The notes beneath the pieces were generated by a model. The model was given only the letters and a program-made list of their open reading frames with translations. It was not told the origin of the DNA and did no database searches. Position numbers and translations under genes: made by a program. Of a DNA stretch of 38,295 nt, positions 5,489 to 24,257 are shown in pieces. Source of the DNA: Candidatus Aenigmatarchaeota archaeon (GTDB lineage: Archaea; Aenigmatarchaeota; Aenigmatarchaeia; CG10238-14; SCSR01); the NCBI GenBank assembly GCA_039091335.1, contig JAWCME010000003.1, positions 1-38,295 on the forward strand. Reading direction: 5' to 3'. Numbering within the stretch: the first letter of the stretch is position 1; the number at the start of each line of letters is the position of its first letter.

Positions 5489-6322
5489 ATGCCTGCAAAT
5501 CTCCCTAGGGAATGGTTTATTTTGGAAGAAGAAATGAGAAATACTAAAAGCATTCAAGAAAAAATAGAAAAATTAGAAAGGCTTATTGCACTTACACCCA
5601 AGCATAAGGGAACTGAAAATTTAAGAGCGCAGTTGAACAAAAGATTGGCTAAGTTGAGAAATGAGATGGAAAAGAGTAGCAGGAAAGAGCACATAAAAAG
5701 TAAATTTGAAAAAAATGGTGATGTTTTGGTTTCTATACTCGGATTTACTCAAATAGGAAAAAGTACCTTGTTAAAAAATTTAACAAACGCCTCTGTAGAA
5801 ATAAGTAACAAACCTTATACAACAAAGGAAATTGAAAGTGGAATATGCAAATGGAATGGTGTAAGCATTCAGTTTGTCGAAATACCATCGTTTTTTCTTA
5901 AAAGGCACTTAGCTGTAGCAAAAACTTCTGATTTGTTGGTATTGCTGGTAAGAGACGAAGAAGATTTAAAAAAATTAGAATATATTTTAAATGAAAATAA
6001 TTTTGCAGAGAAGAAAAAAATAGTTTTATTTAGCAATTTTCTAAAAAATTTGTTTGAAGTAAAGGATTTTTCTGAATTTTTGAATAAAATCTTAGAAGAA
6101 GTAAATGTTTTTAGAATTTTTACAAAGCCACCAAAAAAAGAAGTTAGTAAGGATGCGCTAGTTTTTAAACTAAAACCAAAAGTTAGAGATGTTTTGAAAA
6201 GAATAAATGAAAGTTTTCTTGAAACCTTTAAATTTGCAAAAGTTTTTAGGAAAAAAGAAATTAAACGGGTTGGTCTGGATTATGAGCTTGAAGACGGAGA
6301 TATCATTGAAGTTCATGCTTAG
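5489..6322 (+). CDS. DRG/OBG-family GTP-binding protein with TGS domain (divergent)
   Basis: MPANLP, PKHKGTENLRAQL, GFTQIGKST, KPYTT, C-terminal RVGLDYELEDGDIIEVH. Confidence 0.85.
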   Translation: MPANLPREWFILEEEMRNTKSIQEKIEKLERLIALTPKHKGTENLRAQLNKRLAKLRNEMEKSSRKEHIKSKFEKNGDVLVSILGFTQIGKSTLLKNLTNASVEISNKPYTTKEIESGICKWNGVSIQFVEIPSFFLKRHLAVAKTSDLLVLLVRDEEDLKKLEYILNENNFAEKKKIVLFSNFLKNLFEVKDFSEFLNKILEEVNVFRIFTKPPKKEVSKDALVFKLKPKVRDVLKRINESFLETFKFAKVFRKKEIKRVGLDYELEDGDIIEVHA

Positions 6323-6350
6323 TTTTTTTTAAACATGCAATAAGTCTTTA

Positions 6351-6494
6351 TGGGCTCGGCGGGATTTGAACCCGCGACCATTCCCCCTTATCGAACGGGT
6401 TGCTTCCTGGTATCAAAGCTTTTAATAGATAAAAGCTTCAGCTAGTTCCGCTGCTTTCGGCTACATTTCATCTACCATGCTGAGCTACGAGCCC
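6351..6494 (-). tRNA. tRNA-Lys(UUU) with four BHB introns (6456-6471, 6437-6447, 6401-6429, 6381-6394)
   Basis: Acceptor GGGCTCG/CGAGCCC, T-arm GCGGG-TTCAAAT-CCCGC; removing 16+11+29+14 nt yields a 74-nt cloverleaf with arm GCGGG-CTTTTAA-CCCGT. Confidence 0.85.
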
Positions 6495-6981
6495 TCATTT
6501 TTTTTAGCAATTCCTTACATTTATCTTTTATCTTTTTATCGACTTTAATAAAAGCTATTCCTTTGTTTGGCAAACCGTAAACTATATTTGTTCCTATTCT
6601 TGATTTTAATGCAAAAGCAAAAGTTGCTAAATCTTCTTCACCCCTCACAAATATTTTAAACCTTCCTTTATCATCTAAAACTTTACTAACAACTTCGAGT
6701 AATTTTTTAGATATACATCTAGGAGGATTTTTAACCACAATTTTTTTAGCTTTATATTTTTCAATTTTTTTCAGCATTTTTTTACTTGTTTTTTTCCTTC
6801 CAATAATCCCATCATAAACTAAAATGTCTGGCTTAATTCCTAAAACTAATGCTTCATAACTTACCATATCACCAACAACTACAAGTTTGCCAGAAAATTC
6901 GATTTTGCTTAAAGAATTAAGTACTTTACCATAAATTTTTCTAAATTCTGGTTTTATTTTTTCGGTCAAAACTAAATCCAA
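6472..6981 (-). CDS. DUF359-family GTP-dependent dephospho-CoA kinase
   Basis: VVGDMVS, VYDGIIGR, VKNPPRCIS, VRGEEDLA, YGLPNKG. Confidence 0.85.
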   Translation of the reverse strand: MDLVLTEKIKPEFRKIYGKVLNSLSKIEFSGKLVVVGDMVSYEALVLGIKPDILVYDGIIGRKKTSKKMLKKIEKYKAKKIVVKNPPRCISKKLLEVVSKVLDDKGRFKIFVRGEEDLATFAFALKSRIGTNIVYGLPNKGIAFIKVDKKIKDKCKELLKKMRARSSAW

Positions 6982-6986
6982 CTTTA

Positions 6987-7192
6987 CTACCTTTTTCTAT
7001 TTCTTCTAAAATTGTGGGTTTGCCAAGAATACTTTTTTATTTTTGAGCTTTTTCCATAGCCACAAGCGCTACAAACTTTACTTTTTACATTAAAGCTACG
7101 CCTTCCACACCTTTTGTGTTTAGCTAAACTAATCTACACAAGGTGTGGACAGGTTTCCTTCTTTTACCCATTGAAGGCGTTCCTTTTGCCAT
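6987..7192 (-). CDS. rpl37e: 50S ribosomal protein L37e, two exons (7192-7134, 7113-6987), 61 aa after splicing; absent from ORF track
   Basis: Spliced product [61 protein letters not shown] matches the eL37 pattern. Confidence 0.93.
7114..7133 (-). other. 20-nt BHB intron in rpl37e mRNA
   Basis: GUGU-AG^A-UUAG-UUUAG-CUAA-ACAC-AA^A with complementary flanking exons; removal gives TGT AGA AGG TGT (CRRC). Confidence 0.9.
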
Positions 7193-7211
7193 GTTTTCCA
7201 CTAACTACTTT

Positions 7212-7844
7212 TTATATTTGATTTTTATAATAGTTTTGCATGTTTAAAATTTCAAATTCCTTTAAGATTTTATTCGCTCTTTCCAGGTCATCTTTTGTAT
7301 CTATATCGAAAAATTCGTTTGTAGGCATAGATATTGGTACAAACACCTTATTCTTGGATTTTTCAATTATTTCATTTAGATCTTTTTTCGGACCACAATT
7401 TTCAAAAATCTTCTTTTTATATATTCCACACAGCGTTTCATACTTATTTAATCCCCAAAAGTAGAGTATACAATCTACCATCTCTTTCGTCCTAGGTAAG
7501 AGCTCTCTTATTGTCCTATCCTGAACAAAAGGCATGTCGCACGCCAAAAGAAAGAAGTAATCGTTTTTAATATGTTTTATCCCTTCCTTTATTCCTGCTA
7601 CAGGAGAAAAAACCCTTTTGTTATCGGCAATAACCTTTACATTTTTCGAATATTTTCTAACTTCTTCTATAACTTTTTCTCTTTCTTCTCTATTTTTTAC
7701 AACAACCACAATATCAGAAAAAAAATTTTTTGCAACAAACAAAGAATATGCTATTAATGCTTTTTTGTCAAGAAGTACTAAAGCCTTTTCATTTTTCATC
7801 CCCCTTATTTTACCACCCGCGAGAATTATACAGCTAACCCCCAT
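7212..7844 (-). CDS. MobA-like NTP transferase
   Basis: IILAGG, SPVAGI, LACDMPF, FFDIDTKDDL. Confidence 0.8.
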   Translation of the reverse strand: MGVSCIILAGGKIRGMKNEKALVLLDKKALIAYSLFVAKNFFSDIVVVVKNREEREKVIEEVRKYSKNVKVIADNKRVFSPVAGIKEGIKHIKNDYFFLLACDMPFVQDRTIRELLPRTKEMVDCILYFWGLNKYETLCGIYKKKIFENCGPKKDLNEIIEKSKNKVFVPISMPTNEFFDIDTKDDLERANKILKEFEILNMQNYYKNQI

Positions 7845-24120: not shown

Positions 24121-24257
24121 TGCCCCCACCGGGATTTGAACCCGGGTTTGCTGGAGAACTCTCAGCCTTTCATCTTTTTTTCAAACCTTTCGAAATCAAT
24201 CGAAAGGGCTGCATCCTTGACCGGATTTTCCTGGCAGACCATCTAGACTATGGGGGC
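24121..24257 (-). tRNA. tRNA-Glu(UUC) with three introns (24219-24236, 24169-24200, 24148-24160)
   Basis: GCCCCCA/TGGGGGC acceptor; removing 18+32+13 nt gives a 74-nt cloverleaf with CAGCC-CTTTCGA-GGCTG. Confidence 0.88.

Follow-up and report, generated by a model that had tools for sequence, protein, structure and literature searches.

A candidate tRNA-type mini-intron in the gene for ribosomal protein eL37 of an Aenigmatarchaeota MAG

The split eL37 locus

The window (the whole stretch of DNA that was analysed, 38,295 nucleotides, on contig C23) carries on its minus strand a gene for ribosomal protein eL37 that is split in two by a 20-nt insert; every element marked in the first-pass annotation was recovered in place (Table 1). 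The gene lies between those for a MobA-like nucleotidyltransferase and a DUF359 protein, the latter probably being co-transcribed with eL37. Both flanking proteins form singleton clusters in a collection of 15 billion proteins, and the main organism, judged by its sequences, is a poorly sampled lineage.

Table 1 Features of the eL37 locus and elements of its predicted RNA fold; coordinates are those of the window
Feature	Position	Strand	Remarks
MobA-like nucleotidyltransferase gene	7212-7844	-	upstream of eL37
eL37 exon 1	7134..7192	-	ATG 7192-7190, 19 codons and AG (first two bases of codon 20)
Insert (proposed BHB-type intron)	7114..7133	-	20 nt, A-UUAGUUUAGCUAA-ACAC-AA; in-frame TAG 7126-7124
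eL37 exon 2	6987..7113	-	last base of codon 20, 41 codons, stop TAG 6989-6987
DUF359 gene	6472..6981	-	PF04019, 106 bits; start 5 nt past eL37 stop
Outer exon-exon helix, 5' strand	7141..7149	-	UCCACACCU; RNAfold
Outer exon-exon helix, 3' strand	7104..7112	-	AGGUGUGGA; RNAfold
Central 4-bp helix, 5' strand	7136..7139	-	GUGU; includes Cys19 codon
Central 4-bp helix, 3' strand	7116..7119	-	ACAC; in intron
5' splice-site bulge	7133..7135	-	AGA; predicted cut between 7134 and 7133
3' splice site	7113..7115	-	AAA; 2-nt bulge or 1x3 loop opposite U7140; predicted cut 7114/7113
Inner hairpin	7120..7132	-	UUAG(U)-loop-(G)CUAA; strands 7132-7128 and 7124-7120

Read from its ATG, the exon-1 frame gives 19 residues and continues as AGA TTA GTT TAG, the whole ORF (7124..7201) having 25 aa; as had been noted at first pass, the eL37 frame does run into a TAG inside the insert, on which the translations and the 25-aa ORF agree. 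The exon-2 frame (7112 downward) reads RCGRRSF...RNRKR, 41 residues to the stop at 6989-6987. When compared with the Pfam model PF01907 (Ribosomal_L37e), the exon-1 ORF matches positions 2-19 (28.4 bits) and the exon-2 piece positions 20-50 (46.6 bits), both above the cut-off of 27.6 bits, and the same two pieces were recovered by a six-frame search of the genome. After excision at the canonical cut sites, PF01907 positions 19 and 20 abut without gap or overlap; since positions of the model are neither lost nor repeated, the 20 nt (7133..7114) constitute an insert that follows base 2 of codon 20.

The insert separates the two cysteines that make up the first CxxC of eL37. The zinc-ribbon cysteines, residue 19 of exon 1 and residues 2, 14, and 17 of exon 2, become Cys19, 22, 34, and 37 in the joined product (C-x2-C ... 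C-x2-C). Spliced in silico, this product has 61 aa, the length of an intact eL37 copy on another contig of the same MAG (C8:2083-2268), and it scores 108.1 bits against an HMM built from 72 intact eL37 homologues, whose own scores are 97.6-119.8; canonical cuts therefore yield the full-length protein that had been predicted. At the insert site the C8 copy reads TGTAGAAGGTGTGGA, which equals the predicted spliced junction of C23.

Predicted fold and a second insert-bearing gene

Unconstrained RNAfold on 7155..7095 recovers the fold that had been drawn by eye (-24.8 kcal/mol, z -4.4; none of 200 shuffles folds as well). The GUGU/ACAC helix, the AGA bulge, and the UUAG/CUAA inner stem are all returned unprompted, the inner stem with 5 bp (UUAGU/GCUAA) and the outer helix as UCCACACCU(U)/(A)AGGUGUGGA; the flanking exons are complementary as described, UCCACACCU pairing with AGGUGUGGA at 9/9 positions. 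The AAA bulge stands in part: the three A are present at 7115-7113, but they do not form a clean 3-nt bulge beside the 9-bp helix, as the two are compatible only if U7140 is unpaired opposite the bulge. In the minimum-energy fold U7140 is paired and the bulge reduced to AA (2 nt), with an outer helix of 9-10 bp; a strictly canonical BHB register also exists at the insert, the outer helix then having just 3 bp, CUU/AGG. As modelled, the 3' site is relaxed, BHL-like in the terms of the relevant passages of PMC5829648.

A strict BHB motif is in itself common, with 10,550 occurrences on both strands of the 570-kb AT-rich genome (inserts of 10-150 nt). A strict BHB whose register agrees with the homology boundaries was obtained with 419 of 200,000 shuffled inserts and with 120 of 200,000 random genomic 20-mers placed at the insert site (0.06-0.2% over both controls). 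The improbable part is the agreement of the motif register with the homology boundaries, not the motif itself.

One of the 80 best out of 386 metagenome relatives of eL37, on metagenome contig L119, matches over 215 nt rather than 183 nt. Its insert of 32 nt (1422-1453) occupies the same phase-2 position of codon 20, and the product spliced in silico again has 61 aa (115.2 bits with the HMM of 72 intact homologues). The predicted fold (-26.8 kcal/mol, z -5.7) comprises an 8-bp exon-exon helix, a central GUGC/GCAC helix, an AGA bulge, a 10-bp hairpin, and, at the 3' site, a 2x4 internal loop with AAAA opposite AG. The 5' side of the BHB definition (4-bp central helix, 3-nt bulge, inner helix) is found in both C23 and L119.

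When the two loci are aligned, 17 base pairs are shared, with 34/34 cells paired and none broken; partners slid by 1-3 columns are paired in 29-44% only. Three compensatory double changes are seen, one per helix (C-G to U-A, U-A to C-G, U-A to C-G), that of the central helix being U-A to C-G, and two one-sided changes still pair; the five pairs common to both inner hairpins hold one compensatory and two one-sided changes. Since just two intron-bearing genes are known, the covariation rests on two sequences, which cannot give significance; in the shuffle control, 67 of 500 shuffles reach the observed value. The compensatory changes indicate selection on RNA pairing.

Complementarity between the exons in the outer helix amounts to 9/9 in C23, 8/9 in L119, and 7/9 in the intact C8 copy; in 87 intact homologues, filtered for Cys at positions 19 and 22, it ranges over 3-8 of 9, with 8 reached by three only. 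Such pairing above background would be a further sign of selection on the RNA. Part of the complementarity comes free from the His and Cys-Gly codons, which may explain the acceptance of an intron at this site.

The two hosts are well separated, their DUF359 neighbours being 41% and their eL37 proteins 75% identical. L119 has the classical arrangement LSm-L37e followed by DUF359 (adjacency of eL37 and DUF359 was seen in 10/94 intact loci with enough downstream sequence), and its eL37 is 85-90% identical to intron-less genes, that is, closer to these than to C23, so that the intron would have been lost repeatedly or have moved. A protein search with the L119 exon-2 ORF returned three proteins, all apparently normal eL37.

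The region reads as an imperfect palindrome, and the insert could in principle be a feature of the DNA only: an artefact of assembly, a mobile palindrome of MITE type, or a palindrome bound by protein. We consider this very unlikely. As to an artefact, the insert (7114-7133) occurs with 0 differences in Logan contigs of three hot-spring metagenome runs (X1 record 3, 597 nt; X2 record 9, 561 nt; X4 record 20, 234 nt), and its absence, which had been proposed as a refutation, was not observed in these contigs. No insert-free contig joining across the site was found among the Logan contigs, that of X3 not spanning the insert; five sequencing runs are listed with DNA of the C23 locus, all of them DNA runs. 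X1 may be the source sample, and the support would then amount to two or three cases from one study, not four. By their difference counts, divergent short contigs in these runs do not fit C8 (5, 10, and 2 differences seen versus 7, 11, and 5 expected). As to a mobile element, the insert is single-copy in the 570-kb assembly (longest other match, 12 nt), and there are neither target-site duplications nor terminal inverted repeats beyond the BHB helices. Against any DNA-level origin, the boundaries match the homology break to the base, and the changes between C23 and L119 point to RNA pairing as the thing selected.

Alternatively, the insert might be kept in the mRNA and recoded, by a -1 frameshift at AGA or by ribosomes hopping across its 20 nt. 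The length of either insert is 3n+2, the exon-2 frame is open through both, and a stable hairpin follows the shift site; a frameshift at AGA would add 7 residues in C23 and 11 in L119. This is extremely improbable, as no slippery heptamer is present at UUGUGUAGAUU (C23) or CAGGUGCAGAUC (L119) and no matching take-off and landing codons lie 20 nt apart. The first C-x2-C would become C-x9-C or C-x13-C, when all 87 intact homologues (so filtered) keep Cys19 and Cys22, and the inserted residues differ between C23 and L119 and are not conserved.

The intact copy and the splicing system of the host

The first-pass annotation had named expression of an intact paralogue as a finding that would overturn the intron. 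An intact eL37 does exist on C8 in the same bin, but the evidence points to a co-binned population. The MAG (G000; completeness 87%, marker contamination 1.1%) was submitted to an all-against-all ORF comparison, in which small contigs (C3, C4, C6-C11, C13, C15, C18, C22) repeat stretches of the large ones (C1, C12, C23-C29) in gene order, at 40-87% aa identity: C7 repeats C1:72.6-82.5 kb (10 genes), C13 repeats C27:16.3-21.3 kb, C6 the end of C29, and C8 parts of C23. Genes present twice include those for a class II aminoacyl-tRNA synthetase (68%), CDC48, TFB, MinD, LSm, and eL37; the synthetase, CDC48, TFB, and MinD genes are normally single in genomes of this sort. A homologous multi-intron tRNA adjoins eL37 on both C8 and C23. 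By its DNA, C8 comes nearest to genus g25 (78-87% identity; collinear with G024). The 90%-identity cluster that contains its eL37 has 14 members, several of them labelled Aenigmatarchaeota; for the ThiI and ABC genes of C23, the best identity to any relative is only 69-73%. Despite the low marker contamination, the MAG very probably mixes two related populations, and because the small contigs duplicate the large ones in gene order, usually single-copy genes included, C8 is probably a co-binned relative and does not carry a paralogue of the C23 gene.

A tRNA-like gene was seen on the minus strand at window ~6320-6480, downstream of DUF359, its 3' half (..GGTCGCGGGTTCAAATCCCGCCGAGCCCA) being homologous to the multi-intron tRNA of C8. 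Neither ARAGORN nor Rfam gave a call at this position, and the gene is therefore probably heavily interrupted.

Were C8 and C23 to come from one cell, expression of the interrupted copy would not be required, and the C23 gene could be a pseudogene hit by a small palindromic insertion, with C8 supplying eL37. Besides the intact 61-aa gene in the same bin, the distance of the C23 gene from LSm (30 kb) speaks for this, whereas C8 keeps LSm close. We regard it as improbable: the exons are undamaged apart from the insert, and the protein obtained by joining them has a score inside the span seen for intact homologues; a host with a DUF359 of only 41% identity has kept a homologous insert, with compensatory changes; and the exon-exon pairing of C23 exceeds that of all 87 intact genes. 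The C8 gene, moreover, probably belongs to the other population, given the duplicated stretches (synthetase, CDC48, TFB, LSm, and tRNA among them) and given that its product clusters at 90% with 13 others, while the neighbours of the C23 gene are singletons.

Inserts are also present in the stable RNAs of this genome. The SSU rRNA gene (C1:92675-94420) has 1,746 nt, compared with 1,478 positions of the model, and three inserts were seen in it (82, 56, and 46 nt); that of 56 nt, checked by hand, is a canonical BHB (GGUG/CACC, bulges AAA and UAA, 3-bp outer helix), and canonical cuts restore the rRNA consensus. The LSU rRNA gene (C1:83872-87099) has 3,228 nt, compared with 2,987 model positions. 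Among the tRNA genes of the window, inserts occur in the anticodon arm and, in the tRNA at 24121-24257 (minus strand), in the D-loop as well; according to the Rfam alignment, the D-loop insert of this tRNA has ~20 nt and its anticodon-loop insert ~32 nt, and its variable arm is long. A simple BHB scanner gave no clear motif for the three tRNA introns of the window.

As to the enzymes, RtcB is present (C25:37091-37729, 284.5 bits, profile positions 1-209), cut by the contig end. EndA (PF01974) gave no match even at E<=10 in the G000 assembly, which is 87% complete; it was found in 30/30 relatives, those of the family having it as one frame of about 190 aa (195 aa in G017) that looks alpha-type. 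Classical alpha4 EndA is described as strict in its motif. The missing EndA match and the relaxed 3' sites of C23 and L119 count against a spliced intron, as does the intact copy on C8. According to the passages of PMC5829648 on enzyme types, the enzymes that cut relaxed motifs are those of the (alpha-beta)2 and epsilon2 types, and DPANN EndA of an alpha4 type with an extra L3 loop is linked there to heavily disrupted tRNA genes.

Taken together, the 20-nt insert is best read as a genuine tRNA-type (BHB) mini-intron in the eL37 pre-mRNA, spliced by EndA and RtcB, to which we assign a probability of about 0.8. This reading is founded on the anatomy, on the exact restoration of PF01907, and above all on the divergent L119 gene with covarying helices at the same codon phase, and it upholds the original proposal that the first CxxC of eL37 holds a BHB-type intron. 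The anatomy, the presence in DNA, and the conservation are observed; for cleavage, ligation, and translation we infer the following course. The gene would be transcribed with its insert; nt 44-52 of exon 1 would pair with the start of exon 2, the region of the Cys19 codon and the 3' end of the intron would form the 4-bp central helix, and the intron hairpin would close the motif. EndA is predicted to cut after the second base of the AGA bulge and after the second A past the central helix, and RtcB to join the exons, completing codon 20 as AG|A. The mature mRNA would then encode all 61 aa of eL37, its zinc ribbon (C-x2-C...C-x2-C) being intact; from unspliced RNA only a 22-aa peptide would result.

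Occurrence among relatives and comparison with known systems

Split eL37 genes were looked for by six-frame PF01907 search. A single intact eL37 was found in 54/60 relatives, 53/69 other genomes of the family, and 93/117 other genomes of the order, and no other split eL37 was found in the 69 family or the 117 order genomes. Five genomes without eL37 were searched again at E<=5, giving just hits of 10-16 bits, two of which on reading proved to be an unrelated zinc-ribbon protein. Two matches in G012 represent one gene, seen twice because two contig ends overlap, and that in G037 is partial owing to a contig end. Weak extra PF01907 hits (19-20 bits) occur in G007, G089, G091, and G092, and a partial match in G071.

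In genus g21, eL37 was matched in neither G020 nor G034, one of which has a completeness of 91%; the strongest of the weak hits in this genus come from an unrelated zinc-ribbon protein of 47-68 aa (MLTKNI.CPRCGKP...).

A pattern scan for the intron with its exon flanks over all GTDB species representatives gave 55 hits, 48 of them with bacterial or unclassified titles. Among the seven archaeal hits no further intron-bearing eL37 was found; four are intact thaumarchaeal eL37 genes, the second CxxC of which mimics the pattern, and three are unrelated ORFs. A genome-wide scan for strict BHB motifs with an ORF-fusion test gave 1,483 candidates, mostly chance fusions of neighbouring genes.

In the thaumarchaeal loci L152, L158, L176, and L187 (Nitrosopumilales / Nitrosotalea), the DNA before the second CxxC (..AGACACAAAAGATGTGGAAG) closely resembles the intron 3' end with the start of exon 2 of the window gene. 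This likeness of AGACACAAAAGATGTGGAAG is probably a coincidence arising from coding constraints.

The first-pass annotation had further supposed that ribosomal proteins scored as absent in DPANN genomes may be hidden by such introns. For eL37 this found no support where it was searched: with no other split gene in the 117 genomes of the order, the idea of hidden ribosomal proteins is unsupported there, and the survey suggests that an intron-hidden eL37 is rare. The closed Mia14 genome is reported without L37E, S17e, and S27e in a passage of PMC5498576. Gene callers miss such interrupted genes entirely, and eL37 is counted as present in G000 just via the probably foreign contig C8; statements on DPANN marker completeness or on a 'missing ribosomal protein' can therefore err in single cases.

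It is doubtful, although conceivable, that the mini-intron is an old device kept by selection, coupling the supply of eL37 to RNA-splicing capacity and to the balance of translation and folding. Synthesis of eL37 that needs EndA and RtcB would tie its supply to splicing capacity in an organism with intron-rich 16S, 23S, and tRNA genes, and, exon 1 being part of the motif, to the balance between translation and folding as well. The identical codon phase in hosts with 41%-identical neighbours, with intron-less genes closer to L119 than C23 is, would be in keeping with such a device; a mobile intron, entering GUGY-AG|A sites anew through reverse splicing, would be the alternative.

Introns in protein genes are very rare in archaea. 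A BHB intron in the cbf5 pre-mRNA of Crenarchaeota was reportedly described by Watanabe (2002), Yoshinari (2006), and Yokobori (2009), and since 2002, in the papers searched, cbf5 of Crenarchaeota has been the sole published archaeal protein gene with a tRNA-type intron. In the full-text literature searched, with subscription journals outside its coverage, no tRNA-type intron in eL37 or in any ribosomal-protein gene was found, and that of eL37 would have no predecessor among ribosomal-protein genes. A second gene, if true, from another superphylum, for a ribosomal protein, and with covariation in its support, would mean that mRNA splicing by EndA/RtcB is not a crenarchaeal oddity. The locus would also offer a natural substrate of ~60 nt for testing what DPANN endonucleases accept (compare the extra-loop alpha4 enzyme in the passages of PMC5829648 cited above).

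In the passages concerned, the cbf5 intron is placed in Desulfurococcales and Sulfolobales (PMC2738675), cbf5 is called 'one mRNA' with a BHB (PMC7714728), and for BHB introns of protein genes only the cbf5 papers are cited (PMC5829648, PMC12397907). The introns of cbf5 and eL37 are alike in being short tRNA-type introns in protein genes of informational pathways, with a motif often relaxed, a patchy occurrence among relatives (gain and loss), and a removal presumed to be by EndA and an RNA ligase. They differ in the gene, in the DPANN host, with close homologues labelled Aenigmatarchaeota, and in the position, the eL37 intron splitting a zinc-knuckle CxxC; splicing of cbf5 has been shown experimentally and that of eL37 is predicted from sequence. 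As the gene is eL37 and cbf5 of G000 is one uninterrupted open frame of 314 aa, the intron would be one of the same kind and not a member of the cbf5-intron family.

Another mRNA substrate is HVO_1309 of Haloferax volcanii, in the 5' region of which, according to the passages on it in PMC7714728, a BHB is processed by EndA; both are mRNAs, but what is described there for HVO_1309 is cleavage, with no frame-interrupting intron. With the BHB introns of archaeal tRNA and rRNA, removed by EndA and RtcB, the eL37 insert shares, apart from its relaxed 3' site in the favoured fold, the helix-bulge-helix geometry and the predicted cut two bases into each bulge, and G000 itself has a canonical BHB insert in its SSU rRNA and further inserts in tRNAs. 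Unlike in these, the outer helix of eL37 consists of coding sequence on both sides; with an mRNA as the substrate and exon 1 as part of the motif, splicing would have to compete with the translation of exon 1.
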